A DNA stretch of 21,242 nt from Planctomycetota bacterium (lineage in GTDB: Bacteria > Planctomycetota > GCA-002687715 > DRQF01): positions 1 through 21,242 of the forward strand of contig JALTLO010000141.1 of the NCBI GenBank assembly GCA_027001995.1. Reading direction: 5' to 3'. The notes below the pieces were generated by a model. That model was not told the origin of the DNA. It was given only the letters and a program-made list of their open reading frames with translations, and searched no databases. Both the position numbers and the translations under genes were made by a program. Numbering within the stretch: position 1 is the stretch's first letter; each line of letters opens with the position of its first letter. This document shows positions 920 to 17,976 of the stretch, in pieces.

Positions 920-2617
920 TCAGTTGCCAGAAGACTTCAAGAGTTCGCACCAAGCGCGCCCGCGGAGGCGCCAGGAGTTAGGGGTCATGGGAATATCGTC
1001 GGCGACTATGAGCCCAGTACTCTTGCGTAGCGCGGCCAGGGCCGATGGCATCAAACATGCAATACCATTCATGAGGTAGTGACTCAGCCAGTAGTGAGCC
1101 CGTTTGTCTCCCAATTCGTTGAGACCCCAGGCAATACCGAAAGCCGCAAATTCTTGGCCGTCAAGCATGGCTTTGTAGACGTTAGGAATGAGGTCTTTGA
1201 AGCCCGAAGCACCCGCAGCCAATCCCGCCGCCATGCGGACCGCTTCATTCTTGTGGGCGAGGGCCAAGCGGAGAGGTTCTTTAATCTTGGGCGACTTGAG
1301 ATGGGCCAATATGTCCAAGCCAGATCTCTTGGCTAAGTGGTTTGGATCTTCGCTTTCCGTATAGACTTTTTCGATGCTCTCAAGGATGGCATCAGTCAAG
1401 AAGGCAAGGGTCAGGTCTCCTGGGAGTTTTTTCTCCCGCTGAGAATAAAACCATGCCACCATCCCTTTGAGCTGGGGGGCAGCTTCTTCGCTGGCCAAGA
1501 CCCATTGAGATAATTCTTTGATCTTGGAGGCCCGAATAGCTTCGGGCAAATCACCAGAACGATTCAGGAGGGCTCCCAAGGCCCAATAGCTGGCGAAGTC
1601 TGGCGACTCCTTGATCATGGCAACCGCTTGATCAAACAAAGGTGCGATGTTGACCTGAGCCAAGAGGATACCAGCATTGTAGCGCACCTTGGATGAATAG
1701 GCGCCATCCAAGTATTCCTTGGCTACTTCCGTGAGTTGAGCCGCCTCTCGCTTGGCGACATCGGAGGATAAGGTGTACAGAAAATAAAGTGCTGCCTCAA
1801 TCGACTCTGCCGAATAGGCATCATGGAGTGCATAGGACTTAATGGCTTCAATACTCTGGGAGCCATGAATCCCCAAATAGGCCATGGAAAACAGAGCATT
1901 GATTTTGATGTACTCTCTTTGATCCTCAAGGATTTCGATGATTCCGGGGGCAAGGCCGGAGTTCTCTTTTTCCCAGAAGTTCTGAGAGTTCATCCGCGAC
2001 AAAGCAGACATAGCCAAAGCCCTTTGGCCAGCATCGACAAGCTTTGAACCCGCGATCCGGGCTAAAGCTGAAACACCGTAGGGCCCCATGGAAGCGAATT
2101 TTCCCAGAGGTAAAAAGCTCGTCGTGAGAGTTGCGCAATCAGCTAAGTCTTTGATTTTCTTGCTGGCGAAATCCCAGGCCGCTGCCTTCATGCAGGAAAT
2201 CCCCTCTTCACCATCAAAGAAATCCATGGGACCATACCAGGAATCATAGGCCGCGCTGAAGGCCAAGCAGGCCAGGGATTCCCGCCGCGTCACCAAAGGT
2301 TCTTGCCGAACAACTTCAAGCATTCTGGGGATAGCCCGGGCCGCATCCATGTTTTGAGCCAGAGCCAGGGCCGCACCATAGCGCACCAAAGAAAGGTCAT
2401 GGGAGAGCCAGGGTGCAAAAAAATCCTCGTCTTCAAGACCAGATTCATCCGCTTTCTTGAGCAAGACACGAACCCCAATCGCCCGCTCTGCGGCGTAACG
2501 GCTGGTCAACATTGCCACCAAACTTGAATCCATGGATGGCTTCGTCGTTGTTTGCCCGCAACAAACAGAGACACAGAGAAGTAAGGGCAAGAAAGGAAAA
2601 AGGACGGAAGGCTTCAT
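920..2617 (-). CDS. Exported HEAT/PBS-lyase-like repeat protein (565 aa)
   Basis: Hydrophobic N-terminal signal (MKPSVLFPFLPLLLCVSVCCG-Q). Recurring HEAT-like helices: VRYGAALALAQ, QRALAMSALS, IKINALFSMA, VRYNAGILLAQ, VRMAAGLAAG. Confidence 0.75.
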   Translation of the reverse strand: MKPSVLFPFLPLLLCVSVCCGQTTTKPSMDSSLVAMLTSRYAAERAIGVRVLLKKADESGLEDEDFFAPWLSHDLSLVRYGAALALAQNMDAARAIPRMLEVVRQEPLVTRRESLACLAFSAAYDSWYGPMDFFDGEEGISCMKAAAWDFASKKIKDLADCATLTTSFLPLGKFASMGPYGVSALARIAGSKLVDAGQRALAMSALSRMNSQNFWEKENSGLAPGIIEILEDQREYIKINALFSMAYLGIHGSQSIEAIKSYALHDAYSAESIEAALYFLYTLSSDVAKREAAQLTEVAKEYLDGAYSSKVRYNAGILLAQVNIAPLFDQAVAMIKESPDFASYWALGALLNRSGDLPEAIRASKIKELSQWVLASEEAAPQLKGMVAWFYSQREKKLPGDLTLAFLTDAILESIEKVYTESEDPNHLAKRSGLDILAHLKSPKIKEPLRLALAHKNEAVRMAAGLAAGASGFKDLIPNVYKAMLDGQEFAAFGIAWGLNELGDKRAHYWLSHYLMNGIACLMPSALAALRKSTGLIVADDIPMTPNSWRLRGRAWCELLKSSGN

Positions 2618-2785: not shown

Positions 2786-4819
2786 CTAGCCAAAGTAGAT
2801 CCCTCGATCTCGAAGGAGAGTGACCAAGCCGGATTCTCTTGGGTCTTCTTCAACCTCAGCCATCGTATCGTTGAGGCGGCTTACGATCATGTTCTTGATT
2901 TCAGCGAGCCCAACGATGCGATCCATCTCTTCCTTTTTGGCAACTTCCAAGATCCACAGCCGACGTGACTTGACATGCAAGAGTTTCTCACACCAATCAC
3001 GAATGGAGAAAGCCACGTTATCCGGGATACCATGCCGCGTGTGAGAACTCAGGATCTCTAAGATTTCATCGGCGGTCATGCCCGAGGCTGCGGCTTCTTG
3101 GACACTCTCGTGGCTCAAGTGATAGTGGAGTGCAAAGTCAGCTTTGACCCTCTTAGCAAATCGACCCAGTTCTTGAATCAAATTCGGCGTCGAGTTCTCG
3201 GGAAATGCGATGATCTCGTGGTCAGGATTGACGATCAAGGCCACGCCGTTGTTGGGGGCATCGGCGGGGATCTCTAAGCCCAGCAACATGCCTCCCAGGG
3301 GCGTGAGGCGAATAGCCCAAGGACGCTTTTCCCGACCACGGCGGGCCAGCTCAATCACACCTGCCCGGCAAAGCCCTTCAACGAGCCAAGCCTGCAAATC
3401 TCGCTGCATCATGTCGGGAGAGGCGAGTTTGGGGAAAGGTGCGTTCTTGTGGCGCTCCTGGTAAACCTGTGCTTGTTCTGGTCGCACCGCGTTTTTGAGA
3501 TAGCGGTTTCGGGCTCTTTGGACCAAAGTAGGTGCGTCACACCATGTGCCAATACCGGCTTCCTTTAAGAACTCAACAATGCCATAGCGCAAACCCTTGT
3601 GATGAATGGGCGACATCCCCCAATTCTTCGACCGCATGGCAAACTTGAAGAGGTCCTTGGCCATGTCCTGCGCTGGCCGTTTTGCCATTTCGCGCCAAGC
3701 CGGAGACATTTTCAAACAGGAATCCAAACCCGGCGAGCAGAACTCCCGGTACTTGAAATAGGTCAGGTACCAAAGTAAGTCGGCCTCAGCCCCGAGGAGA
3801 CGCTTTCCGGGTGAGAGGGAATCTTTCGCTAAACGTTTGACGGCTGCCTTGTAGTATTCACCATCTTTCTTTACCCGAAACGTGCTGCGCCCAATTTCCG
3901 ATGCCAAAGCACGCAAGTCTCCGATGGAGTCACCACCCCGCTGGAGATCACCAGAAGCATCATCTTGATCAACCTCCCCCATGCCCATGAGTACGGCCGA
4001 AATTTCACCAAAAATAACAAGCCAGCCTTCCCGGCAGGCCAAGCCATGATTGGCAAGCTCACTGGACTCGAAACTTCCCAACAGGTTTCTTTCGAGTTCC
4101 TGTCCCCAAGCAACGATTCCCTCTTCTTCCACATCGATACCCAAACGGCGTAGGGCTCCAGGATCAAGAATACCACCGTGCTCGCTAAAATTAGAAAACA
4201 GAGCACGAAGCGATTCGTTCTCGATGCGGCTCACTCGATCTTCGATGGCGGAACGCACGCAGAGACGATTGCGAAGTTCCTTGTGGTCAAGTTCAAGCAA
4301 ATCATCCAGGCCAAGATTGGTCAGACGTTCCAAGAGTTCTCCGCGATCCAAGAATCGAATATGGGACTGCAGATTGAGAGAGGCCTCCACAGGTCTCTTG
4401 CTCTTATTGAACACATCTTCCAGCAACTTGCCGATTTCTTCGGGAATACAAAAGGAGGTGCCCCGTCCCGACTTGCCGCGTATTCGCTTGGGGACAAAGA
4501 AGGCCCGTTCTGCCAAAGCTGTGCCAACAGGCAACAGTTCAAAATCATTGACTGGCAACTCGTTCTGATCAAAACCACGTAGATCAAATGCTTCCAGCCA
4601 CTGACCGGTACGAACCACGTAGACCAAGAGGTCTCTCAGTCGCGAAGGCAATTGAGACAATCTGGTTTCCATCGTCTTGCGGCACGTCAAGGCCTCCCGC
4701 AACATGCGCCTGCGATCGCTTTCGCCAATAGGCCACGCATGACGATCAAGATTCCAGAATCCGAGTGCTGAATCGAGTTGGCGCCCTTCAATTTGGGCTA
4801 GTGCTTCGTCTAGTTTCAC
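2786..4819 (-). CDS. XPB-associated protein with a C-terminal Helicase_C_3-type domain (no helicase motifs of its own)
   Basis: 677-aa ORF whose GTG start overlaps the xpb TGA stop (GTGA, 4816-4819). The C-terminal LIVNPDHEII...ELGRFAKRV...YHLSHESVQEAAASGMTADEILEILSSHTRHGIPDNVAFSIRDW is visibly homologous to the N-terminus of the adjacent XPB (LIVQNDRTV...RLGQFAELV...YCISPLSLWNAASAGLFFADVLTFLDEYSMFPIPKKLGEDIEDV). Confidence 0.8.
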   Translation of the reverse strand: MKLDEALAQIEGRQLDSALGFWNLDRHAWPIGESDRRRMLREALTCRKTMETRLSQLPSRLRDLLVYVVRTGQWLEAFDLRGFDQNELPVNDFELLPVGTALAERAFFVPKRIRGKSGRGTSFCIPEEIGKLLEDVFNKSKRPVEASLNLQSHIRFLDRGELLERLTNLGLDDLLELDHKELRNRLCVRSAIEDRVSRIENESLRALFSNFSEHGGILDPGALRRLGIDVEEEGIVAWGQELERNLLGSFESSELANHGLACREGWLVIFGEISAVLMGMGEVDQDDASGDLQRGGDSIGDLRALASEIGRSTFRVKKDGEYYKAAVKRLAKDSLSPGKRLLGAEADLLWYLTYFKYREFCSPGLDSCLKMSPAWREMAKRPAQDMAKDLFKFAMRSKNWGMSPIHHKGLRYGIVEFLKEAGIGTWCDAPTLVQRARNRYLKNAVRPEQAQVYQERHKNAPFPKLASPDMMQRDLQAWLVEGLCRAGVIELARRGREKRPWAIRLTPLGGMLLGLEIPADAPNNGVALIVNPDHEIIAFPENSTPNLIQELGRFAKRVKADFALHYHLSHESVQEAAASGMTADEILEILSSHTRHGIPDNVAFSIRDWCEKLLHVKSRRLWILEVAKKEEMDRIVGLAEIKNMIVSRLNDTMAEVEEDPRESGLVTLLRDRGIYFG

Positions 4820-6567
4820 GCCTCTGGTTTCTCCAATTTGTCGAGGATGCTGGCCTTCGCCAACTCACAGTTGCTCCAATCCAACCGAGGAAACTCGCCT
4901 TTCGCTTGTTTCACTTCGTAGTGATAGCCTTGCTCCGTCAGGAACATCTGACGGTTAGCGGCGAATACCATTTCTCGGGTGTCGTCAGTAACAAGTGTGT
5001 AAAAGACCGTCTCTTTTTCGTGGCTCTTGGGGCGCAAGACTCGCCCCAACCGCTGGGCTTCTTCTTGTCTCGAACCGAATGTTCCAGAGACCTGAATAGC
5101 AATATTTGCATCGGGCAAATCAACCGCAAAGTTGGCAACCTTCGACACGATGAGCTGGTTGATACGACCATCACGAAAATCTGAGTAGAGGACTTCGCGG
5201 TCGCTCTGAGACGTCTTGCTGGTGATTATTTCGATTCCAGTCAGCGCCCGAATCTGCGCCAACTGTTTGAGGTACATGCCAATGATAAGAACGCGATCAT
5301 CCTTGTGGCGTTTAAGCAAAGCATCGAGGGCTTTGAGTTTGAGGGGGTTTTCGGATGCCAAGCGATAACGATCTCTGAGACCGGCATGCTCATAGTGCAT
5401 GGCATCTTCTTTGCCGAAGGGCACGCGCATTTCGACGCATCGGGCTTCAGCAATAAAACCTTGCCCTTCTAAGCGACGCCAAGGCATGTCATAGCGTTTA
5501 GGTCCAATGAGAGAGAAAACCTCATCTTCCTTACCGTCTTCTCGCACCAAAGTTGCAGTCAATCCCAATCGACGACGGGCTTGCAAATCAGCGGTCATGC
5601 GAAAAACGGGAGCTGGGAGCAAATGGACTTCGTCATAGACAACAAGCCCCCAGTTCACCTTCATAAAGCTTTCGAAGTGAGGGTAGCCATCACCCTTGGC
5701 CGACCGATATGTGATCATCTGATAGGTCGAAACAGTGACCGGCGCGATTTCTTTGACTTCAGCACTGTATTCAGCGATTTCGGAATGCGGCAGATTGGTC
5801 TTCTCTTTCAGTTCTCGCACCCATTGCCGCACTGCCGTCGTGCTGTTGGTCAGAATCAATGTTTTCGTCTGATAGAGGTTCATGGCCGCCATAGCGGTGA
5901 TCGTCTTGCCAGCTCCGCAAGGCAGAACGACAACGCCATTGCCTCCTCGTTGATCTCCATCTTGATAGAAGGCCGCTGCAGCCGCGTTCTGGTAGGGTCG
6001 CATGACAAATGGTTTGCCACCAGGAAGTTCATCTACCAAGCTAAACTGCATGGCATCCCCTTCCACATACCCGGCAATGTCTTCCACTGGGAAACCCGCT
6101 CGAACCAAGTAGCGTTTCAATTCACCTCGGGCTTCATCCGAAATAATCAGTTCATGCCCTATCTCATTGGTTTCAACGATGAATTCGGCGATCGTCTCCA
6201 GGGTGCTCACTTCTTCCCAAAGTTCCGGCGTGACACTCAGGACCAAGTCGCTCCCTTCCCGGCGCAAAAGAAGTTTGCCAAATCGCCCCATGACGTCTTC
6301 AATATCCTCACCCAATTTCTTGGGAATAGGAAACATGGAGTACTCATCCAGGAAGGTCAAGACGTCAGCGAAGAACAAACCTGCCGATGCTGCATTCCAA
6401 AGTGACAAAGGTGAAATACAGTATGTGTGGAGATTGTCGGGACTCTTCACTAGCTCCGCGAATTGTCCGAGACGCTCTCGCGCTTCTTCCGCCTGAGGGT
6501 GGTGAACATCTAACAACACTGTGCGATCGTTCTGAACGATCAATGGACCATCACGCCGAGAGGCCAT
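4816..6567 (-). CDS. xpb: DNA repair helicase of the XPB/Rad25/Ssl2 family (SF2)
   Basis: Motifs VVLPCGAGKT (Walker A), DEVH, GLTAT, the XPB-typical LVRED loop, and SRQEEAQRLGRVLR. N-terminal Helicase_C_3 domain. SD-like GGGAG upstream, inside the 3' end of uvrA. Confidence 0.93.
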   Translation of the reverse strand: MASRRDGPLIVQNDRTVLLDVHHPQAEEARERLGQFAELVKSPDNLHTYCISPLSLWNAASAGLFFADVLTFLDEYSMFPIPKKLGEDIEDVMGRFGKLLLRREGSDLVLSVTPELWEEVSTLETIAEFIVETNEIGHELIISDEARGELKRYLVRAGFPVEDIAGYVEGDAMQFSLVDELPGGKPFVMRPYQNAAAAAFYQDGDQRGGNGVVVLPCGAGKTITAMAAMNLYQTKTLILTNSTTAVRQWVRELKEKTNLPHSEIAEYSAEVKEIAPVTVSTYQMITYRSAKGDGYPHFESFMKVNWGLVVYDEVHLLPAPVFRMTADLQARRRLGLTATLVREDGKEDEVFSLIGPKRYDMPWRRLEGQGFIAEARCVEMRVPFGKEDAMHYEHAGLRDRYRLASENPLKLKALDALLKRHKDDRVLIIGMYLKQLAQIRALTGIEIITSKTSQSDREVLYSDFRDGRINQLIVSKVANFAVDLPDANIAIQVSGTFGSRQEEAQRLGRVLRPKSHEKETVFYTLVTDDTREMVFAANRQMFLTEQGYHYEVKQAKGEFPRLDWSNCELAKASILDKLEKPEA

Positions 6568-9500
6568 GATTTGCTCCCTTTGCTGATCTACTTTTCTTCT
6601 TGGCCACAGAACTCTTTGGAGTCATTCGTCGCTTCTTCATATGGGTCTTGAGATACTTACCGGTGTGAGAATCTTTTATTTTGCAGAGTAGTTCAGGGGT
6701 TCCGACGGCAACGATCTGGCCTCCTTCATCGCCCCCAGAAGGACCTAAGTCAATGAGATGATCGCAGCTCATGGCAACATCCAGGTTGTGCTCGATAACG
6801 CAGACCGTGTGGCCTTGGTCAGTCAGACGATGTAAGACTCGTATGAGTTTGGCAACATCGTCAAAGTGAAGACCTGTCGTCGGTTCGTCCAAGACATAAA
6901 GCACGTCCCCATGAACACGTCTGGATAGCTCTTTGGCAAGCTTGATACGCTGAGCTTCGCCCCCTGAGAGGGTGTTGCTCGCTTGCCCTAAGCGAAGATA
7001 ACCAAGCCCCACATCAACCAAGGTTTCCAGAATCCGGGCAATCCGGCGATGATTCGAGAAGAACTCCGCCGCAACGCTCACTTCCATCGAAAGGACATCA
7101 GAAATCGTCTTTCCCCGATATTCGACCAACAAGGTTTCGGAGTTGTAGCGCAAACCGTCACAGGACTCGCAGGTGATCCAAACATCTGCCAAGAAGTTCA
7201 TCTCGACCTGAATCGAGCCCCGGCCGGCACAGACTTCGCATCGTCCACCTTTTGCGTTGAAGCTAAATCGACCTGGTTTGAAGCCCTTCATCTTGGCCAT
7301 AGTAGCGGTGGCAAATACGGCCCGAATGTGATCAAAGCAACCGGTATATGTCGCCGGATTCGATTTGGGGGTCTTGCCAATCGGAGCTTGGTCAATCACC
7401 ACGAGGTCGGAAACACGGTTAGCTCCCCGTATCGCTTTGTACTTGGCAATGCTTGATGACTTGCGTTTGAGGGTTTTCTCAAGCGCAGGAACCAGAGTAT
7501 TTACAATCAAGCTGCTCTTGCCACTTCCGCTCACCCCCGTGACACCCACGAAGCAACCCAAGGGGATTTTCACATCCATGTCTTTTAAGTTGTTGGTCCG
7601 GCAAGAAGTCAGCTTGATAACCTTGCCATTGCCCTTCCTCCGCACCCCAGGAATTGGCACCGATTTCTGGCCATTAAGATAAGCGGCCGTCAATGAATCC
7701 GGGTTTTTGAGCAGTTTGCTTCTGGGACCCGAGAAAACAACTTCTCCACCTTGGTGGCCAGCACCAGGGCCGATGTCAACAATGTGATCAGCCTTCGCCA
7801 TGGTGTCTTCATCATGTTCCACCACAATGACGGTATTGCCAAGATCCTTCAGCTCATCCAAAGTGCCGAGAAGGCGGGCTACGTCTCTTTGGTGCAAACC
7901 TATGGTGGGTTCATCCAAAACGTAAAGCACCCCCGTCAAGCCGCTGCCAATTTGGGTCGCCAAGCGAATTCTTTGGGCTTCACCCCCAGAGAGTGTTGTG
8001 GCCCGTCGATCGAGCCCCAGATAGTCGAGGCCAACTTCAACCAAAAAGCGAAGCCTGTCTTGGACTTCCTTCAACGGTCGCTCGGCAATTTTCTTGTCCG
8101 TTGCAGAGAGCTTAATCTTCGAGAAGAAGGCATGGGCCTCTTCTACGGTGAGCAAGGTTGTGTCGGCGATATTCTTGTCGGCGATGGTGACCGCCAGAGA
8201 CTCCTTGCGAAGTCTCTTGCCCAAGCACTCCTTGCAGTCCTTCGCACTCATCAGCTTGGCCACTTCTTCACGCCACTTGTCGCTATCAGATTCCCCGAAC
8301 CAGCGCTCGACATAACGAGCGAGGCCTGGCCAAGTGACTTTCATCACCATGCTTCGGCTCTCCCCTTTGCGCGCCTTCTGCATACGCAAAGAAACCCTTT
8401 CGTCAACACCATACAAGATGGCCTGCTGCGCCTCAGGTGACAGATCACACCATGATTCATCGACGTCAAAACCGACGACCTTCGCCACACCTTTGATTGC
8501 TTTTCGATAGTAAGATTTGCGTTTGAAGAAGCGGCCAACCTTACTGGTCATGGCCCCCTTCAAGATCGGCTTCTCTGGTGCATCAATCAATAAATCTGGG
8601 TCGCAACGCCTCACCATGCCCAAGCCCGAGCAAGTTGGACAAGAACCATGATGCGAGTTAAATGAAAACATGCGCGGGGTAAACTCTTCGGGGATCACCC
8701 GACCATGCTCGGTGCAGACTTTTTCTTCTGTAAACCAAGAGACTTCACCATCGGTTGTGGCATAGCCAAAGATGCCCCCACCGTGTTCGAAAGCCTGGGC
8801 CACCGATTCCAACACCCGAACACGCATTTTGGCCGACATCTTGATGCGGTCGAGAACCAAGCAGACTTCCTTAGCGCGAGACAAAGGGGGAAGGGCCTGA
8901 TCTAAGCGAATCTCCTTGCCATCCACAAGAGCCCGCAGAAAGCCCTGCTGAACGAACTCTTGGGCGTTTGTTTTCAACTCCGAGGCTTTCTTAAAAGCTA
9001 GGTCGCAGCCCAAGGATTTGCTGAACAAGGGGGCGACAAGATAAGCCTTACTGCCCTCTTGAGTCTTAATCTTCTTCCAAATGGCTGCGGGAGACCAAGG
9101 TCTCAGTTCTTTGCGGCAGGAAGGGCAATGTGGTTTGCCAATGCGCGCAAAGAGCAAACGGAGATAGTCGTATATCTCAGTTGTCGTCGCCACGGTTGAG
9201 CGGGGATTGCGAGAGACATTTTTCTGATTGATAGCAATCGCCGGCGCCAAACCCTCGATGCGCTCCACCGGAGCTTTTTCCAAACGGCCCAAGAACTGGC
9301 GAGCATAGGCAGAAAGGGACTCGACGAAGCGCCTTTGTCCTTCGGCGAAAATGGTGTCAAAAGCCAAGGAAGTCTTGCCACTGCCAGAAGGCCCCGTAAT
9401 GACAGTAAAACTCCCCGTAGGAATGGTGACATCAATCGACTTCAGGTTGTTCGTCGATGCGCCCTCGATCACCAAAGCCCCTTCGACACTCATATCTTTC

Positions 9501-12358
9501 GGAGATTTTCGTTTGCGGCGATTGGGTTTGCGAGGAGTAAGATGCTCCTTCATTGCCTGGGCGGTGAACGATTCCTTCTGCTTCACAAGGTCATCGAACG
9601 GTCCTTGAAATACGACCTGGCCCCCACCAGATCCACCTTCCGGCCCCAGATCCACGATCCAATCCGCGACTTTGACAACGTCAAGGTTGTGCTCCACCAC
9701 CACAACCGTGTTTCCAGCATCAACCAATCCTTGGAGAGCATTGAGCAGCTTTTCGACATCTTGAAAGTGAAGGCCCGTTGTCGGTTCATCAAGAAGATAG
9801 AGGGTGCGACCGGTTGCTGGACGACGCAGTTCACTGGCGAGCTTAACTCTTTGCGCTTCGCCACCAGAAAGTGTCGTGGCCGTTTGCCCCAAAGTGATGT
9901 ACCCCAAGCCAACAGACAAAAGAGCATCAAAGATGCGTTTGATCTTGGGATGATGGGCAAAGAAAGCGCTGGCATCCTCGACAGTCATCTCTAAGATGTC
10001 GAAAATGCTCTTGTCACGATAGGTAATTTCTAACGTCTCTGGGTTAAACCGTTGACCATTACAGTCTTCGCAAACCACTTCGACATCGGGCAAGAACTGC
10101 ATCGAGACGGTTTTGACCCCGGCTCCCGAACACGTTTCGCATCGCCCCCCAACAACGTTAAAAGAGAAACGACCTTTGACGTAACCCCGGGCCTTCGCCT
10201 CTTCGACTTGGGTAAAGAGCTCGCGAATGGGATCCCACACTTTGGTGTAAGTGGCGGGATTCGAACGGGGTGTGCGACCAATTGGGCTTTGGTCGATTTC
10301 GATGACCTTGTCAAAGTGCTCGAAACCTTTGATAGCCCGATGGGGCCCAGGTTTTGCCTTCGCTCCATGATAGTGAATGCTCAGAGCCCGCTTAAGGATG
10401 TCATCAATGAGCGTGCTTTTCCCTGATCCGGAAACGCCCGTAACAACAGTGAGAAGCCCAACAGGAAACTTGACGTCGATGTTCTTGAGATTGTGGTGCT
10501 TTGCTCCCAAGACTTGGAGGAAATCCTTGGCGGCTACCCTGCGCTCTTCAGGGATCGGAACAACGCGCCTGCCAGAGAGATAGTCGGCTGTGGCAGACCC
10601 CTTCATCGACAGGAGTTCCCGGAAAGTGCCAGCGCTCACAATTTCGCCACCGTGAACCCCCGCATCTGGTCCAACGTCGACAATGAAATCAGAGCGTTCC
10701 ATCATCTCTTGGTCGTGCTCGACAACCAAGACCGTATTGCCCAAGTCCCGAAGTTCTTCCAGAGTCTTGATCAGACGAGCATTGTCCCGGGCATGCAAAC
10801 CAATACTCGGTTCGTCCAAAACATAGAGAATACCCTTAAGCCGTGACCCGACTTGAGTCGCTAAACGAATTCTCTGAGATTCACCACCGGAGAGAGTAGC
10901 CGCGCTACGATTCAGATTGAGATAACCGAGTCCTACGGAACTCAAGAAAGTCAGACGACCATGAAGCTCTTTGACAATAGGCTTGCCAATCAGCGCATCG
11001 TTGCCACTGAACTCAAGGTCAGTAAAGAACGCCGTCAATTCATCAATTCCAGCAGCCGCTAACTCCGCGATGCCTTTGTCTCGAAAGCGCACAGCCCGGG
11101 CAAATTCATTCAGTCGGCTTCCCTGGCAGACATGGCAGGTCACATTGGCAAAAAAGCGCTCCATATGCTTAGCGGGTTTCGCAGCGAATTGATCACGCAA
11201 ACCAGGAAGGAGGCCGATGAGGGGTTTCTTCTTTGACGACTTAAGCTGCCAATTCTTGCCCTGGTAGGCCATCTTCAAGGGGATGACTTCCCCCTTGGAA
11301 CCATGAAGAATGGCTGATCGCGTATCGAGGTCGATTTCCTCCCACGGTTGTTCCATGTCAAAACCGTAGTGCTTGGCAATACTTGGCATTGACATCATGG
11401 AAACGTTGCCATAATCGCGGAGCTGAGAATTCCCCAGAGGAGCTAAGGCACCTTTGGCGATGCTCAGCCCTGGCTCGGGAACAACCAAATCTTCGTCAGC
11501 ATCGTGAAGAATGCCCAATCCGTCACAATGAGCGCAAGCACCGTGAGGAGAGTTGAATGAGAAAAGCCTTGGTTCTAAGTCAGGAAAAGTCTTAGAGGTA
11601 GCCAAAGAAACCATCTTCGATGAGAAAGTAAGATGATTCTCACCAAGGAGGACTGCCATCACCCCAGCACCCAATTTCAGAGCGGCCTCAATCGCCTCGG
11701 CCAAACGGCTTGCTTTCCCAGGGGAAACCTTGATGCGGTCGATGACCACTTCAATCGTGTGGCGAACATAGCGGGCCAGTTTGATCTCTTCATCTAACCT
11801 TCGCAATTCGCCATCGATACGAACGCGGACGTAACCCCGGAGGCGCAGGTCTTCCAGTTCTTTGCGATATTCACCCTTGCGGTCTTTGACGATAGGCGCC
11901 AAGACAGTCAATGACTTGTTGGGATGCTCGGCGAGGAGGCGGTCGCGAATTTGGTCCGCGGATTGAGCTCGGATTTCTTCACCTGTCTCCGGGCAATAGG
12001 GTGTTCCTAAGCGTGCGAAGAAGAGGCGTAAATGGTCGTAGACCTCTGTCACCGTTCCTACTGTTGACCGTGGATTCCGATTGACAGTCTTCTGATCGAT
12101 GGAAACTGTGGGTGACAAGCCATCAACGTGATCAACTGCGGGTTTGGCTATTTGCCCCAAGAATTGCCGGGCGTAAGAAGACAAGGACTCGAGGAAACGC
12201 CTCTGCCCTTCATTGTGGATAGTATCGAAAGCCAGGGAAGACTTACCCGATCCCGACACGCCGGTCACCGTCGTCAGCGAACCCCGAGGGATTGCCACAT
12301 GGACGTTCTTCAGGTTGTTTTCCCGGGCTCCCCGGACAATGATTTCGCTGTGACCCAT
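6551..12358 (-). CDS. uvrA: Double-length excinuclease ABC subunit A (two complete UvrA units fused, about 1935 aa)
   Basis: Four Walker A motifs (GVSGSGKS, GVSGSGKS, GPSGSGKT, GVSGSGKS), four LSGGE signatures and four LDEP Walker B motifs. UvrA-specific motifs are duplicated (EGQRRF, RNPRSTV, FSFNS, SNPATYT). Start placed at ATG 12358 (MGHSEIIVRGARENNLK); the ORF track extends to 12397. Confidence 0.96.
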   Translation of the reverse strand: MGHSEIIVRGARENNLKNVHVAIPRGSLTTVTGVSGSGKSSLAFDTIHNEGQRRFLESLSSYARQFLGQIAKPAVDHVDGLSPTVSIDQKTVNRNPRSTVGTVTEVYDHLRLFFARLGTPYCPETGEEIRAQSADQIRDRLLAEHPNKSLTVLAPIVKDRKGEYRKELEDLRLRGYVRVRIDGELRRLDEEIKLARYVRHTIEVVIDRIKVSPGKASRLAEAIEAALKLGAGVMAVLLGENHLTFSSKMVSLATSKTFPDLEPRLFSFNSPHGACAHCDGLGILHDADEDLVVPEPGLSIAKGALAPLGNSQLRDYGNVSMMSMPSIAKHYGFDMEQPWEEIDLDTRSAILHGSKGEVIPLKMAYQGKNWQLKSSKKKPLIGLLPGLRDQFAAKPAKHMERFFANVTCHVCQGSRLNEFARAVRFRDKGIAELAAAGIDELTAFFTDLEFSGNDALIGKPIVKELHGRLTFLSSVGLGYLNLNRSAATLSGGESQRIRLATQVGSRLKGILYVLDEPSIGLHARDNARLIKTLEELRDLGNTVLVVEHDQEMMERSDFIVDVGPDAGVHGGEIVSAGTFRELLSMKGSATADYLSGRRVVPIPEERRVAAKDFLQVLGAKHHNLKNIDVKFPVGLLTVVTGVSGSGKSTLIDDILKRALSIHYHGAKAKPGPHRAIKGFEHFDKVIEIDQSPIGRTPRSNPATYTKVWDPIRELFTQVEEAKARGYVKGRFSFNVVGGRCETCSGAGVKTVSMQFLPDVEVVCEDCNGQRFNPETLEITYRDKSIFDILEMTVEDASAFFAHHPKIKRIFDALLSVGLGYITLGQTATTLSGGEAQRVKLASELRRPATGRTLYLLDEPTTGLHFQDVEKLLNALQGLVDAGNTVVVVEHNLDVVKVADWIVDLGPEGGSGGGQVVFQGPFDDLVKQKESFTAQAMKEHLTPRKPNRRKRKSPKDMSVEGALVIEGASTNNLKSIDVTIPTGSFTVITGPSGSGKTSLAFDTIFAEGQRRFVESLSAYARQFLGRLEKAPVERIEGLAPAIAINQKNVSRNPRSTVATTTEIYDYLRLLFARIGKPHCPSCRKELRPWSPAAIWKKIKTQEGSKAYLVAPLFSKSLGCDLAFKKASELKTNAQEFVQQGFLRALVDGKEIRLDQALPPLSRAKEVCLVLDRIKMSAKMRVRVLESVAQAFEHGGGIFGYATTDGEVSWFTEEKVCTEHGRVIPEEFTPRMFSFNSHHGSCPTCSGLGMVRRCDPDLLIDAPEKPILKGAMTSKVGRFFKRKSYYRKAIKGVAKVVGFDVDESWCDLSPEAQQAILYGVDERVSLRMQKARKGESRSMVMKVTWPGLARYVERWFGESDSDKWREEVAKLMSAKDCKECLGKRLRKESLAVTIADKNIADTTLLTVEEAHAFFSKIKLSATDKKIAERPLKEVQDRLRFLVEVGLDYLGLDRRATTLSGGEAQRIRLATQIGSGLTGVLYVLDEPTIGLHQRDVARLLGTLDELKDLGNTVIVVEHDEDTMAKADHIVDIGPGAGHQGGEVVFSGPRSKLLKNPDSLTAAYLNGQKSVPIPGVRRKGNGKVIKLTSCRTNNLKDMDVKIPLGCFVGVTGVSGSGKSSLIVNTLVPALEKTLKRKSSSIAKYKAIRGANRVSDLVVIDQAPIGKTPKSNPATYTGCFDHIRAVFATATMAKMKGFKPGRFSFNAKGGRCEVCAGRGSIQVEMNFLADVWITCESCDGLRYNSETLLVEYRGKTISDVLSMEVSVAAEFFSNHRRIARILETLVDVGLGYLRLGQASNTLSGGEAQRIKLAKELSRRVHGDVLYVLDEPTTGLHFDDVAKLIRVLHRLTDQGHTVCVIEHNLDVAMSCDHLIDLGPSGGDEGGQIVAVGTPELLCKIKDSHTGKYLKTHMKKRRMTPKSSVAKKKSRSAKGANHGLSA

Positions 12359-12774: not shown

Positions 12775-12810
12775 GCCTTACTTCTCCCAAGCCTTACTTA
12801 TTCTCCCAAG
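12775..12810. repeat. Short tandem duplication of the arsC 3' end
   Basis: gccttac-ttctcccaag (12775-12791) and gccttac-tta-ttctcccaag (12791-12810) differ only by the arsC stop codon. Confidence 0.65.
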
Positions 12811-13202
12811 AGTAAATCGACCCGTTCTTTGATTTCATCTCGAATCCTGGCGAAGGATTCGAGGATTTCTTCTTCATCTCCCCCGGCCTCCGCCGGGTCT
12901 GGCAATGGCCAATGAACTCTCTTGATGTTGCTGAGCTCAAGAGGGAGATTCTCTTCAGCATGAGAGCACATGGAAACCACAAGATCCAATTCTGCTAGAG
13001 GCACATCGGAAACTTTGTTTGACGCCTGATCCCGTATGTCAACACCGCAATCATCCATAGAGACAATCGTTCTGGGGTTAATCCCTTGAGGTGCAGTGCC
13101 GGCGGAGAACACATGGTGACCCTGATCCAAATATTTCTTGCCAAATGCTTCGGCCATCTGGCTGCGGCAGGAATTGCCAGTACAAAGAAATAAGACGTTC
13201 AT
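12798..13202 (-). CDS. arsC: Arsenate reductase ArsC-like protein (LMW-PTPase fold)
   Basis: P-loop LFLCTGNSCRSQMAE, plus SAGT and HWPLPDP. The ATG overlaps the upstream stop (ATGA, 13199-13202). Confidence 0.8.
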   Translation of the reverse strand: MNVLFLCTGNSCRSQMAEAFGKKYLDQGHHVFSAGTAPQGINPRTIVSMDDCGVDIRDQASNKVSDVPLAELDLVVSMCSHAEENLPLELSNIKRVHWPLPDPAEAGGDEEEILESFARIRDEIKERVDLLLGE

Positions 13203-14053
13203 TGATTGAATTCTCCAGCAGCTGCTATTTCATCTCGCAAAAAACCTGCGATCGTTGGGTTGCCGGCAACTATCTCGCCACCAAACAGCCAATTTGAACC
13301 ATCCGAGAAGTCGGAAACAACGCCCCCAGCTTCCCGCACCAAAATTGCTCCTGCCGCCACGTCCCAAGGGGAAAGGTGTAGTTCCCAAAACCCATCGTAG
13401 CGCCCGCAAGCGGTATAAGCCATGTCCAACGCCGCGCTACCGCAACGTCTGATGGCTCGAGCCTTCTTAATCAACTTGGCGAAATGATCAAGATTGTCAT
13501 TCTCAAGCTCATCCACTTTGTAGGCAAACCCCGTGGCCAACATAGCATCGATCATGGCTTGGGTTTTTGTCACATGAATAGGACTTCCATTCAGGGTGGC
13601 ACCCTGGCCATGGCCAGCCAAGAAAAGCTCATCAAGTTTCGGGGCAAAGATGCACCCAGCAATGGGCTTACCGTCAAGAAGAACCCCTAAAGACACAGCA
13701 AACATCGGTATCTGGTGGACGAAGTTGGTGGTTCCATCCAGAGGATCCACGATCCAGCGATAACCTCGATCACTTGAGATAGAACCCCCATGACTCCCAG
13801 ATTCTTCCGCTAAGCAAGAATGATCGGGAAAAACCTTGGCAATTTCTTCCAAGATATAGGCTTCGGAAGCACGATCAGCCTTGGTGAGCAAATCTCTGGA
13901 ACCTTTGAAGTCCACATCTTTGTCTTCGAGTTGGCCCAAATGATCCATCAGAATGGAACCGGCAGAACGACCAATTCGCTCCAGATGGAGTAAGAGCAAG
14001 GCTATTTCTTCTTGTTCTGGCACGAGCCCTTCTCTTTCATTTTCTGCCACCAA
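13199..14053 (-). CDS. suhB: Inositol monophosphatase family protein (SuhB-like)
   Basis: Motifs LAEES, WIVDPLDGTTNF, RRCGSAALD and WDVAAG. The start is uncertain (TTG 14053, GTG 14050 or GTG 14023). Confidence 0.88.
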   Translation of the reverse strand: MVAENEREGLVPEQEEIALLLLHLERIGRSAGSILMDHLGQLEDKDVDFKGSRDLLTKADRASEAYILEEIAKVFPDHSCLAEESGSHGGSISSDRGYRWIVDPLDGTTNFVHQIPMFAVSLGVLLDGKPIAGCIFAPKLDELFLAGHGQGATLNGSPIHVTKTQAMIDAMLATGFAYKVDELENDNLDHFAKLIKKARAIRRCGSAALDMAYTACGRYDGFWELHLSPWDVAAGAILVREAGGVVSDFSDGSNWLFGGEIVAGNPTIAGFLRDEIAAAGEFNQ

Positions 14054-15372
14054 TCCATGCGAGTCCCGATGTCCTTCTCAAAGCCAAAAGGTGAGGGTTG
14101 GTAATAAACCGTGCCCTTCTTCTTTTCTGGCAGATAATCTTGATCTACCACCCCTTCATCAAAATCATGGGGATACAGGTAGTCTTTCCCGTATCCTAAC
14201 GACTTCATGTGAGCTGTGGGTGCGTTTCGCAGATAGATCGGGACTTCAAAAACATCGCCATTCTTGATGTCCGCCTGAACCGCCTTAAAAGCAGCGTAAA
14301 TGGCATTCGACTTAGGAGCTGTGGCCATATAGACGGTAGCTTCAGCCAAAGCCAACTCACCTTCGGGCTTACCCATCAATTGAAAACTCTCTCTTGCAGC
14401 CAGAGCAATTGTAAGAGCCTGGGGGTCGGCCAACCCTACGTCTTCAGAGGCGAAACGGATGATTCGTCGGGCAATCCAAAGTGGGTCTTCGCCGGAAGCT
14501 AACATCCGCGCTAACCAATAGAGAGAAGCCTGAGGGTCTCCACCGCGCATGGACTTATGGAAAGCACTCATGACGTTAAAATGGTCTTCCCCAGACCGAT
14601 CATAGCGCAGGCGCCCATCGGAGAGAGCACGGTCGACAGCGGCAGCATCCAAGAGCGAACGCCCCAAGTGCCCGCGGGATTTCTCCCGTTTGAGTAGGGC
14701 CTCTAATGCATTCAAGCTACTCCTAGCATCCTTTGCCGAACGCCTTACTAAAGTATCCACGGCATCATTGGACAATGCGATGTTCGTCGGCAAGTCGAAA
14801 CGCTTAGGATCATCAAGGGCCCTCCGGATCAACTGCTGAACGGATACGTCATCCAAGGGATTCAGAGTAAACAGTTGACAACGAGATAAGAGAGCCGCAT
14901 TGAGAGCGAAAGAAGGATTTTCGGTAGTCGCCCCGATAAGGACGACGGTCCCATCCTCCACATGAGGCAAGAAAGCATCTTGCTGACTCTTGTTGAAACG
15001 ATGAATCTCGTCAACGAAGAGAATCGTCCCTACATGTTCAATCTGTCTGTGGTACTTAGCTTCAGTCACCACCTCCCGCACCTGCTTCACCCCAGACAAG
15101 ACGGCACTAAAGGCCACGAAACGCAAGCCAGTTCGCCGGGAAATAATACGGGCGATTGTCGTCTTGCCTGTCCCTGGGGGCCCCCAGAGAATCATGGACG
15201 GCACATGATCCTCTTCGATCAGATCCCGCAGCAAAGATCCCCGCGCCACCAGCTCATCTTGGCCAAGGACGTCTTCAAAATCTTGGGGGCGCATGCGTTC
15301 TGCAAGAGGTTGGCTGTCGGGCAACGGCTCTTCAGAATCTTCCGTGTCATCGAAAAGCCCTGCATGACTCAT
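14002..15372 (-). CDS. rarA: Replication-associated recombination protein A (RarA/MgsA AAA+ ATPase)
   Basis: Motifs PLAERMRP, GPPGTGKTT, FVDEIHRFNKSQQD, GATTENP, SAFHKSMRG and ASEDVGLADP. ATG 15372 forms an ATGA overlap with the dacB stop. Confidence 0.94.
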   Translation of the reverse strand: MSHAGLFDDTEDSEEPLPDSQPLAERMRPQDFEDVLGQDELVARGSLLRDLIEEDHVPSMILWGPPGTGKTTIARIISRRTGLRFVAFSAVLSGVKQVREVVTEAKYHRQIEHVGTILFVDEIHRFNKSQQDAFLPHVEDGTVVLIGATTENPSFALNAALLSRCQLFTLNPLDDVSVQQLIRRALDDPKRFDLPTNIALSNDAVDTLVRRSAKDARSSLNALEALLKREKSRGHLGRSLLDAAAVDRALSDGRLRYDRSGEDHFNVMSAFHKSMRGGDPQASLYWLARMLASGEDPLWIARRIIRFASEDVGLADPQALTIALAARESFQLMGKPEGELALAEATVYMATAPKSNAIYAAFKAVQADIKNGDVFEVPIYLRNAPTAHMKSLGYGKDYLYPHDFDEGVVDQDYLPEKKKGTVYYQPSPFGFEKDIGTRMDWWQKMKEKGSCQNKKK

Positions 15373-16988
15373 GAATCCAACTCGGAAACCAAAGAGCAAA
15401 GGGCATCCTGCATTTTGCGGGCCCGATTGACAGATACGTTGTTGCAGAGAATGGAGAACGCTATGAGGTGTCCATCTGACAGACGCACAAAGCCACTGAG
15501 GGAACTGATCCCACTCATGGTTCCTGTCTTGGCAAAGACCCGCCCTTTCAGCTTCTTCATCCGACGACGCAAAGTTCCATTCCCCTCTGGCTGAGCCAGG
15601 AGTTCACGAAACTCTGCGCATCTCTGGGGATCCTGAGCCACGTGATCCAAGACGCGGACCATTTGCCATGGGCTCAAACGGTTCTCCCGGGACAAACCAC
15701 TGCCATCAGCCACGATAGTATTGGGACTCAACAAGTCTTTCTCACCCAACCAATCGGTCACAGCTCGGGTACCGGCGGCAAAGCTGCCTTCTTGATGAAC
15801 TTGACGACCCAGAGTACGGAGGACCAGTTCGGCATAGAGATTCATGCTATTCTGAATCATCGGAGCCAAAGTTCGCCTCAACTTGGACGTGTAGACCATC
15901 AAGTCTTTCATCCCGGCCACATCAAGGTCTGCAACCACATGGCCAACGCCGCCTTCGACAACCACTCCACGGTCTTCTAAAGCCAACTTCAAGGCGTGAA
16001 CGAAGAAACGGGGGCCATCATGGACATTCACCGCAGTTTCATAACCCCTTCCTTTGCTCCACAAACGTCCACTGACAACAAACTTATTGTTGTCCTTGCC
16101 CCGTCTTACGCCGATTTTGTGGCCATTTTTCTTGCTCGTAAGAGAAAGGGCATTCTTCACTTCAACGAATCCCAAATCTGGGTTCGCTCCGACTTTCGTT
16201 TCACCACCAACGTTCGCCGCCATCAATGTTGTTTGGTTGTCGTTGTAGACCAAAGGTTGCACTTCGACCATATAGGTGCGCCAGGCCGCATCTTTCGGCC
16301 AATTGGGGCCAATTTTCGGCCCAGTAAAAGCCCGGGCATCCGCCAGAATACGCCCCTCGATTCTCGTTAACCCTTGCTCGGCCAAGGCCGCGGCCAAGAC
16401 CTCCATGGGGCGTTTAGGATCGTCCCGAAAAAATCGCGCGCTGAGTGTGGGATCACCGCAACCAACAACAATGAGATTGCCGGACAAAACGCCATTCTCG
16501 AATGATCCATCCATGGCGAAACGGGTTCGAAACTGAAAATCGAGCCCCAAGGCATCCTGAGCCACAGCCCCAAGCAACAGCTTCATATTGGACGCCGGCA
16601 CCTGAGCCTCAGTACCGTGAAAATCAAAAAGGATGTCATCATGATCGACATCCAAGATCATGGCAGCAACATCAGCCTTTGCCCCCACTTGACGGATGGC
16701 TTTTAGACATTTTCGCCGAAGTTCCTTGATTCGTTTCGCGGTAATTCGGGGAGGAAGAGATGGGATGACTTCCTTGGGGGTGTCCACCCCTCGGTTCTGA
16801 TCATGGTCCTTTGAGACCATGCTATTCTCGGCCTCAACAGTCTTCTCGCTGTCAGTGCAGCTGAAGATCGCGCCCAAGAAAATCGTCAAAACAAGGGTCA
16901 AGAGAACCCGCACCCACAAGACGGACCCCAAGAATCTTGGGGTCCTATGATTCAACTCAAGCTCTCTTATCCGCCTATCGATCGTCAT
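15369..16988 (-). CDS. dacB: D-alanyl-D-alanine carboxypeptidase/endopeptidase (PBP4, peptidase S13), membrane-anchored or lipoprotein
   Basis: SxxK (PASNMK), SxN (SMN), DGSGLSREN and KTGT motifs, plus GCGDPTL. A hydrophobic N-terminal stretch ends in IFSC. The start is uncertain: ATG 16988 chosen, with TTG 16955 or the track start 17051 possible. Confidence 0.88.
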   Translation of the reverse strand: MTIDRRIRELELNHRTPRFLGSVLWVRVLLTLVLTIFLGAIFSCTDSEKTVEAENSMVSKDHDQNRGVDTPKEVIPSLPPRITAKRIKELRRKCLKAIRQVGAKADVAAMILDVDHDDILFDFHGTEAQVPASNMKLLLGAVAQDALGLDFQFRTRFAMDGSFENGVLSGNLIVVGCGDPTLSARFFRDDPKRPMEVLAAALAEQGLTRIEGRILADARAFTGPKIGPNWPKDAAWRTYMVEVQPLVYNDNQTTLMAANVGGETKVGANPDLGFVEVKNALSLTSKKNGHKIGVRRGKDNNKFVVSGRLWSKGRGYETAVNVHDGPRFFVHALKLALEDRGVVVEGGVGHVVADLDVAGMKDLMVYTSKLRRTLAPMIQNSMNLYAELVLRTLGRQVHQEGSFAAGTRAVTDWLGEKDLLSPNTIVADGSGLSRENRLSPWQMVRVLDHVAQDPQRCAEFRELLAQPEGNGTLRRRMKKLKGRVFAKTGTMSGISSLSGFVRLSDGHLIAFSILCNNVSVNRARKMQDALCSLVSELDS

Positions 16989-17976
16989 AGCCCTTCGGAT
17001 GTGAAGATGACCAGTCCCAAGCTGTCTTAACGATGGTTTCCAGATCACCATATTTGGGTTTCCAGCCTAAGACTTTTTCTGCCCTTTTGTAGTCGGCAAT
17101 AAGAATGGCCGGATCCCCCGCTCGGCGTCCAACCGCTTCGCTCTTGATGGCTTTGCCAGTGACTTTGGCAACGGTGTCGATCACTTGCTTGACGGAATAA
17201 CCTGTGCCATTGCCCAGATTGAACGCTGCGCTCTCGCCGCCGTTCTCCAGATACTCCAGCCCTTTGATGTGAGCATCCGCCAAATCCAAAATGTGGATGT
17301 AGTCTCGAACGCAAGTGCCATCCACCGTGTCGTAGTCGTCCCCAAACATTTTGATGTCGTCCCGTTGTCCCAAGGCAACTTTCAAGACCAAAGGAATCAG
17401 GTGAGTTTCTGGTTCGTGGTCTTCACCAATCACCCCACCTTCCGCGGCACCCGCTGCATTGAAGTAGCGTAAAATAACGTGCTCCATGCCGTAGGCCTCT
17501 TTGTAGTCCTTCAGAATGTGCTCGATCATGAGCTTCGTACGGCCATAGGGGTTAATCGGATCTTGAGGATGAGTTTCGTCGATGGTATCGCGGACTGGAT
17601 TGCCGAAAGTGGCTGCGGTCGATGAGAAAATAAAGCGTTTCACATTCGCCCGACGCATGGAGCGCAGAAGAGAAAGAGTCGACGCCACGTTGTTGAAGTA
17701 GTACTTCTCTGGGTCTTCGCAAGATTCGCCGACGTAACAATGGGCAGCGAAGTGAAAGACCGCACGAATGCTGTGCTCGGCAAAGAGTTTATCGAGTTTA
17801 GCCTCGTCATTCAGGCTGCCTTCAATGAAAGGTGTTTCCCCGCAAGCAGCTCGATGCCCTTCGGAGAGATTATCATAGCAAAGGGTCTTAAAACCACGCT
17901 GCCGAAGCTCCCACAAGCAATGACTGCCAATGTAGCCAGCACCACCAACAACAAGAATCGTGTCACCTTGACTCAT
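16975..17976 (-). CDS. galE: UDP-glucose 4-epimerase
   Basis: Rossmann motif GGAGYIGSH, plus FSSTAA, YGRTK (YxxxK), LRYFNAAGA, DGTCVRDYIH and RRAGDP. Confidence 0.95.
   Translation of the reverse strand: MSQGDTILVVGGAGYIGSHCLWELRQRGFKTLCYDNLSEGHRAACGETPFIEGSLNDEAKLDKLFAEHSIRAVFHFAAHCYVGESCEDPEKYYFNNVASTLSLLRSMRRANVKRFIFSSTAATFGNPVRDTIDETHPQDPINPYGRTKLMIEHILKDYKEAYGMEHVILRYFNAAGAAEGGVIGEDHEPETHLIPLVLKVALGQRDDIKMFGDDYDTVDGTCVRDYIHILDLADAHIKGLEYLENGGESAAFNLGNGTGYSVKQVIDTVAKVTGKAIKSEAVGRRAGDPAILIADYKRAEKVLGWKPKYGDLETIVKTAWDWSSSHPKGYDDR

Follow-up and report, generated by a model that had tools for sequence, protein, structure and literature searches.

A predicted p52-like partner of bacterial XPB encoded behind a double-length UvrA in Planctomycetota

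An overlapping uvrA-xpb-partner locus and the predicted fold of its third product

UvrA is the damage sensor of bacterial nucleotide excision repair and normally loads UvrB. Here we describe a locus in a 21,242-nt contig stretch (the window; contig JALTLO010000141.1 of assembly GCA_027001995.1, genome G000, 92% complete) of a Planctomycetota bacterium, in which genes for a double-length UvrA, a bacterial XPB and a third protein (the partner), predicted to fold like subunit p52 of eukaryotic TFIIH, overlap on the minus strand (Table 1). An earlier, sequence-only reading had given the overlapping three-gene arrangement, and it is exact, with 17 nt shared by uvrA and xpb and a 4-nt GTGA by xpb and the partner gene; the gene identities that it proposed are borne out by family models and fold matches, and it was right that the window holds neither uvrB nor uvrC, although both were found in the genome. 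AGGGAG sits inside uvrA, 6 nt ahead of the xpb ATG, and the uvrA start is backed by orthologs that align from the same Met. Since the three-gene order was kept in all 18 scorable loci of the window's taxonomic order, the arrangement is not a product of chance. Promoter and terminator scans gave nothing useful.

Table 1. Coordinates of the operon, its junctions and the compared features (positions are those of the window unless a locus is named)
Feature	Position	Strand	Remarks
Tandem (double-length) UvrA, 1935 aa	6551..12358	-	two complete units, short basic linker; ATG at 12358
Bacterial XPB helicase/translocase, 583 aa	4816..6567	-	PF13625 at 9-132; NF045503
p52/Tfb2-like partner, 677 aa	2786..4819	-	PF13625 at 528-649; predicted fold
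uvrA/xpb junction, 17-nt overlap (6551-6567) and Shine-Dalgarno-like AGGGAG	6551..6580	-	sequence
xpb/partner junction, GTGA stop/start overlap (4 nt)	4816..4819	-	sequence
galE, dacB, rarA, suhB (upstream part of the conserved gene string, outside the module; synteny control)	13199..17976	-	domain matches, synteny
Stripped-down tandem UvrA of family f73	L094:6014-9985		also in L095, L096 and L119

XPB passes the NF045503 equivalog model (800 bits against a cut-off of 610) and, in alignment, its Walker A, DEVH, RED motif and motif VI are intact; its N-terminal domain, of the p52-binding type, corresponds to PF13625. When isolated, bacterial XPB has weak activity in vitro (PMC3353954), a 2026 review still terms the function of bacterial XPB elusive (PMC13024598) and deletion of ercc3 in M. 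tuberculosis causes rifampin hypersusceptibility (PMC10534295). The latter is the only phenotype that we found for a bacterial XPB, and it would fit a role in transcription as well as one in repair.

An AlphaFold model of the partner, built from 96 sequences (mean pLDDT 91.4), contains a winged helix (residues ~56-141), a stretch that corresponds to p52's N-terminal half (280-515), a clutch (525-615) and a p8-like domain (~616-673). When the model was compared with the PDB by Foldseek, ranks 1-18 were all p52/Tfb2 chains (E 2.3e-8 to 2.3e-5). VIA-align superposed partner residues 280-673, the C-terminal domain thus included, on human p52 130-459 (Z 15.0, 296 residues), with an rmsd of 8.9 that probably reflects hinge differences; four consecutive p52 domains aligned in order over ~296 residues at Z 13-15, whereas unrelated rows did not exceed Z 9.5. 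The winged-helix region before the clutch (280-514) aligned to 6tru_C 127-318 (Z 9.3, rmsd 3.5, 152 aligned), and a search made without Foldseek concurred, laying 159 residues from 280-515 over p52's N-terminal half at Z 8.7 and rmsd 4.0. For the clutch (525-614), comparison with the N-terminal domain of XPB gave Z 15.6 and rmsd 1.2 over 90 aligned residues, and comparison with the p52 clutch in 6trs_A gave Z 12.3 and rmsd 2.0 over 87. The winged helix at 56-141, whose possible counterpart would be the first winged helix of p52 (residues 1-125, which contacts p34), matched generic MarR-type rows within the whole-model searches. Because the fold match takes in several domains and not just the shared clutch, the earlier label 'p52-like' stands, and the prediction points to a structural kinship between the partner and p52 of TFIIH. 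At E ≤ 0.001 a profile of the partner retrieved 8234 cluster representatives, and at 1e-30 the number was 1185; the weaker matches may include XPB N-terminal domains. Pfam and NCBIfam detected no nuclease domain in the partner, nor was any prominent among the fold matches, whose lists do not exclude one. In its last 150 residues (window 2789-3240, minus strand) the partner looks like the XPB N-terminal domain with the damage-recognition domain of XPB after it, a hint that duplication of the XPB N-terminus was the source of the p52 clutch and of the p8-like domain.

The closest known counterpart is the eukaryotic XPB-p52(-p8) assembly of TFIIH (human ERCC3/GTF2H4/GTF2H5; yeast Ssl2/Tfb2/Tfb5; PDB 8ebu, 6nmi, 7zs9, 6trs), in which XPB likewise carries an N-terminal domain, the p52 clutch and that domain form a pseudo-symmetric dimer (PMC6422496) and the XPB ATPase is regulated by p52/p8 (PMC13024598). 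The predicted fold of the partner has the winged-helix region and clutch of p52 and, after them in the same order, a putatively p8-like C-terminal domain, but the protein is ~150 residues longer at the N-terminus, with residues 1-279 unaligned to p52 in VIA-align. Furthermore, a separate p8, the only other subunit looked for, was not found with PF06331 in this one 92% complete genome, and the genes lie in a bacterial operon behind uvrA. Actinobacterial XPB (M. tuberculosis, Kineococcus; PMC3353954) belongs to the same family, NF045503, and adjoins a PF13625 protein in the five loci scanned, but there this neighbour lies upstream of xpb and uvrA is not adjacent. The archaeal XPB-Bax1 helicase-nuclease pair (cited in PMC3353954) also joins XPB to a dedicated partner, whereas the partner here has a predicted p52-like fold and no detected nuclease domain; the A. 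fulgidus XPB, unlike the one described here, appears to lack the N-terminal domain (PMC3353954). According to that paper, neither p52 homologs nor an XPB complex or partner had been found in bacteria as of 2012, and within the reach of our literature search, outside which most subscription papers fell, we found no later description of a bacterial p52 or of a uvrA-xpb operon. The p52-like partner is thus what is new at this locus, the double-length UvrA being already known in Planctomycetes as two uvrA genes joined into one (PMC8567305).

The tandem UvrA and the excision-repair genes of its genome

The two halves of the tandem UvrA are 44% identical and each contains PF17760 (UvrB-binding domain) and PF17755 (DNA-binding insertion domain). 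The protein exceeds the equivalog cut-offs of NF001503 (2568 against 1147 bits) and TIGR00630 (2483 against 730 bits, a cut-off that each half also exceeds separately), and remains below that of PRK00635 (1414 against 3054 bits), which we take to be the model for the chlamydial double-length UvrA. In a set of 51 intact tandem UvrAs, of which 49 (the window's included) are encoded adjacent to xpb and two nearby, none of the four ATPase sites has been lost: Walker A Lys, Walker B DE, signature and His switch are conserved in both halves of every protein. We presume that R176, E185, R206 and D219 of UvrA have UvrB-contact roles. When contact residues are numbered as in G. stearothermophilus UvrA and mapped by alignment, equivalents of G173, R176, D205, R206 and R216 are present in both halves of all 49 linked proteins, and the equivalent of E222, which together with R216 has been named as the UvrB surface of UvrA (PMC3025350), is Glu in 42/49 N halves and 30/49 C halves; background on UvrA-UvrB stoichiometry and interfaces is given in PMC7835731 and PMC12796330. 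The double-length UvrA published from Planctomycetes likewise consists of two fused uvrA genes with conserved ATPase and UvrB contacts, in the presence of UvrB, UvrC and Mfd; the subtype described here differs in being coupled by overlap to xpb, and XPB occurs 0 times in the main text of that paper (PMC8567305).

The C half of the linked tandem UvrAs lacks the RKG/His cluster and part of IGRTPRSN. The RKG loss is shared by four tandem UvrAs (G030, G032, G041 and G059) from genomes, 66-89% complete, in which no full-type XPB was found; in a quick tree without outgroup these four stand as sister to the main linked clade, and in the order to which one of them belongs full-type XPB was found in one of nine genomes (59-86% complete). 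The asymmetry is therefore not tied to XPB. This, together with the retention of the UvrB-contact residues, led us to reject a remodelling of the C-half UvrB-binding domain for XPB. Residues specific to linked UvrAs were also sought, but amounted to a few scattered positions, confounded by kinship and forming no clear patch. A second tandem-UvrA lineage (L043, L044, L228-L233, L250, L251) has the reverse asymmetry, its N half lacking the RKG cluster and its C half keeping RKG and losing the DR motif, and in family f80 this lineage is present as two separate genes. In L101:3080-9706 (G159) the tandem uvrA is broken by one in-frame TAG near residue 199, which could reflect a sequencing error or recoding.

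Elsewhere in G000, uvrB and uvrC lie next to each other on contig C198, both intact and over their cut-offs (997 against 750 and 559 against 285 bits), and domain 2 of UvrB is canonical in a gap-free alignment to solved UvrBs. The genome also contains an intact mfd, recA and two lexA genes. Of the normal repertoire that the sequence-only reading had proposed to look for, uvrB and uvrC are thus present, while no single-length uvrA was found. Since the window gene encodes the only UvrA found in G000 that has UvrB-binding domains, it is the only candidate found for the housekeeping sensor. A second double UvrA-like gene (contig C105:14483-19615, minus strand, ~1700 aa) is missing the region of the UvrB-binding domain from both of its halves; copies like it occur in G002, G006, G044, G159 and G343. 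The regions upstream of uvrA, uvrB, recA and lexA share no common palindrome, and seven SOS-box patterns matched only ahead of one lexA and not before uvrA, uvrB or recA. The lexA gene at contig C86:327-935 (minus strand) has a CTGT-N8-ACAG site just upstream.

Spread of the linkage and the conserved gene string

XPB was matched in 33 of 61 genomes in a search of relatives and in 199 of 401 in a search of the phylum, in which Corynebacterium glutamicum, included as a control, exceeded the NF045503 cut-off. The loci analysed were the set of relatives plus 80 phylum loci hand-picked for family spread and upstream room, which is not a random sample. Among 114 XPB loci, uvrA lay no more than 250 nt upstream in 53 and further upstream in six; seven were unscorable, leaving 48 of 107 scorable Planctomycetota loci with no uvrA upstream of xpb. 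A further set of 80 loci showed linkage in 11 of 18 scorable Planctomycetota loci (three of the 18 being duplicates) and in none of 50 scorable loci from other phyla. The adjacency is therefore not confined to this genome or its close relatives, as the sequence-only reading had allowed it might be, but occurs in 15 families of Planctomycetota. In 23 of the 37 genomes searched for this purpose the halves of the gene beside xpb were the only UvrA matches, and 36 genomes with an unlinked xpb carry single or other tandem UvrAs. No UvrA-XPB fusion was present in the loci examined; a candidate suggested by long open frames in G026 was rejected, the ORFs being separate and in different frames. In a FastTree tree of XPB (unrooted, no clade test) one large group takes in most of the linked rows, and unlinked rows are nested within it, which fits one origin of the linkage followed by several breaks. 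Two XPBs, from L155 (titled Alcaligenaceae) and L177 (titled Clostridia), take positions among planctomycetes and cyanobacteria in this tree, and are possibly mis-binned or transferred.

The string galE-dacB-rarA-suhB-uvrA-xpb-partner is conserved as a block that includes non-repair genes. In 13 loci from four families (f28, f37, f56, f90) suhB stands directly before xpb and uvrA is missing, and in f36 and f53 uvrA is 0.9-7.8 kb away while xpb stayed. In five other families gyrA lies directly upstream of the xpb-partner pair in all five such loci scanned (L030:6301-8883, L032, L089, L097, L114), a link that could be functional, as a duplex translocase makes supercoils. PF13625, the only domain tested, was found in 15 of 28 hand-picked ORFs neighbouring xpb, including ones from Actinomycetota, Cyanobacteriota, Chloroflexota, Bacillota and Acidobacteriota loci. 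Overall, the constant unit is XPB with its partner, and it is the upstream neighbour that varies.

Three families (f73, f80 and f21) have a degenerate UvrA directly before xpb, and in all nine copies examined the insertion domain is absent from both halves and most UvrB-contact residues are retained. In f73, whose genomes are 80-92% complete, a UvrA match was obtained in 39 of 41 genomes (only two over the cut-off), XPB in 40 and UvrB in all 41, and the UvrA remnant shares a contig with xpb in 31 of 39, lying on a different contig in the other eight. All four remnants examined lack the PF17755 insertion domain, the proximal His switch and every ATPase motif of the C half, and keep the UvrB-contact residues of the N half. 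UvrC is present in the four f73 genomes examined, and three of four searched contain frames of 1084-1124 aa that match UvrB domain 2 and are probably Mfd.

Interpretation, rival readings and flanking genes

The reading that we consider probable, though far from certain, is that the tandem UvrA, as a pseudo-dimer in a single chain, loads UvrB in ordinary excision repair, and that XPB and its p52-like partner form a TFIIH-type translocase of their own, produced from one transcript with UvrA. The tandem UvrA would then be the cell's excision-repair sensor, likely still loading UvrB because both halves keep all ATPase motifs and UvrB-contact residues. By analogy with TFIIH structures, the partner likely binds XPB to give a two-subunit DNA translocase, in which the partner's clutch would pair with the XPB N-terminal domain and its p8-like C-terminal domain would support RecA2 of XPB, both contacts tuning ATP-driven duplex translocation and local DNA opening. 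The pair may be the older and more widespread unit, which would have come to lie behind uvrA once in an ancestor of Planctomycetota and stayed there in most descendants; it likely functions as a machine of its own, either in DNA repair or where transcription has stalled, and the gene overlaps likely serve co-expression and not an obligate hand-off from UvrA to XPB. The clade-wide arrangement is real and the p52-like partner is the strong part of the case, whereas a direct UvrA-XPB hand-off stays a proposal, because uvrA left the string in four families, gyrA precedes xpb elsewhere and the string has non-repair genes. The sequence-only reading had UvrA handing lesions to XPB instead of, or alongside, UvrB: the first version is not supported, UvrB, UvrC and Mfd being intact, UvrB domain 2 canonical and the contacts kept, and the second is weakened by the many lineages whose XPB-partner pair has no adjacent uvrA, by the sister tandem UvrAs from genomes in which full-type XPB was not found and by the non-repair genes of the string.

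Several observations weigh against keeping the two machines apart, or against the p52 assignment on which the account of the translocase draws. The uvrA-xpb junction, no wider than 250 nt in 53 loci from 15 families, is closer and has lasted better than the junctions next to it, suhB being upstream of uvrA in only 22 of the 48 such loci with room. The degenerate UvrA stays attached to xpb in f80 and f21 although other UvrAs exist there, and in f73 37 of 41 genomes have no UvrA but the stripped-down tandem form (~1320 aa). One position of the UvrB-binding domain is Arg in 48/49 N halves and 43/49 C halves of linked proteins and acidic in 13/18 single UvrAs, a difference that is confounded by kinship and unexplained. 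As for the partner, sequence comparison speaks weakly for p52 (best E in the PDB 0.0015-0.002, the p52 match with profile A2 being at 0.0015), XPB outscores p52 with the deeper profile A3, and Pfam Tfb2 (PF03849) matched neither the window partner nor any of the 18 members of the A2 alignment.

The linkage could instead mean that the XPB-p52-like motor contacts the tandem UvrA, while UvrB and UvrC still verify and cut; the motor would either scan the duplex and, in the manner of RNA polymerase and Mfd, bring lesions to UvrA-UvrB, or open the DNA once UvrA has bound. We regard this as possible but doubtful. In its favour are the tight coupling kept in 15 families and the state of f73, where XPB and UvrB persist beside a UvrA remnant, mostly on the contig of xpb, that has given up its insertion domain, proximal His switch and C-half ATPase motifs yet keeps its N-half UvrB contacts. 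In E. coli the insertion domain and proximal ATPase of UvrA matter less in transcription-coupled repair (PMC3025350), and since the f73 losses overlap with these less needed parts they suggest that in f73 lesions may be delivered by a motor, either Mfd with RNA polymerase or the XPB-partner pair. Mfd could do so, however, being present in G000 and probably in three of the four f73 genomes, and the departure of uvrA from the string in f28, f37, f56 and f90, and its distance from xpb in f36 and f53, speak against coupling, as do the lack of a clear cluster of linked-only UvrA residues and the occurrence of the C-half asymmetry where full-type XPB was not found. The boldest form, which we think rather improbable, is that across a large Planctomycetota clade a TFIIH-type XPB-p52 motor is physically wired into UvrABC, scanning or opening DNA and delivering lesions to a single-chain UvrA that loads UvrB, and that this let f73 discard the DNA-clamping domain and most ATPase sites of UvrA; if true, a form intermediate between the excision repair of bacteria and that of eukaryotes would survive here, and p52 would have a bacterial ancestry.

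It is unlikely that the partner shares just a clutch and generic winged helices with p52 and is a DNA-binding or other accessory protein instead of an XPB regulator of the p52 kind. Such a protein would account for the 10-15% identity to p52, the low whole-chain TM-scores (0.15-0.25 by query length in Foldseek), the unaligned residues 1-279 and the behaviour of the last 72 residues: when these were folded alone, p8/Tfb5 headed the rows, but with a weak score (Z 5.7, rmsd 2.3, 56 aligned) that the XPB damage-recognition domain equalled, and Foldseek E was ≥ 0.11, none thus reaching 0.001. It would leave aside, however, the in-order alignment of four p52 domains well above unrelated rows, the stop/start coupling of the partner gene to xpb and a distant relative, L160, that passes Pfam Tfb2 (39.9 against 34.5 bits). 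A UvrB-independent hybrid pathway, with lesions handed by UvrA to XPB in place of UvrB, is very improbable indeed: XPB is an SF2 motor like UvrB, and uvrB and uvrC are outside the operon, but both are intact in G000, uvrB was matched in every f73 genome, the UvrB-contact residues are invariant in both UvrA halves and searches of the partner brought up no nuclease domain.

The multi-domain p52 look-alike, coupled to xpb by stop/start overlap, is the probable missing subunit of a bacterial XPB that has so far had no known partner or pathway, and its absence may explain the weak in vitro activity of the isolated enzyme (PMC3353954). The pair offers a two-protein test of the origin of the TFIIH motor, and the uvrA linkage together with the f73 remnant a concrete system for asking whether a TFIIH-type motor works in excision repair, although linkage alone does not establish a hybrid machine.

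Two genes flank the operon more locally. An arsenate-reductase-like gene (window 12798-13202, minus strand) lies between suhB and uvrA, a place that it occupies only in the same genus, and is probably a recent insertion into the gene string. On the other side, 169 nt after the partner gene, a HEAT-repeat protein of 565 aa with a signal-peptide-like start is encoded (window 920-2617, minus strand), and this gene accompanies the operon chiefly in genomes of the window's own family.

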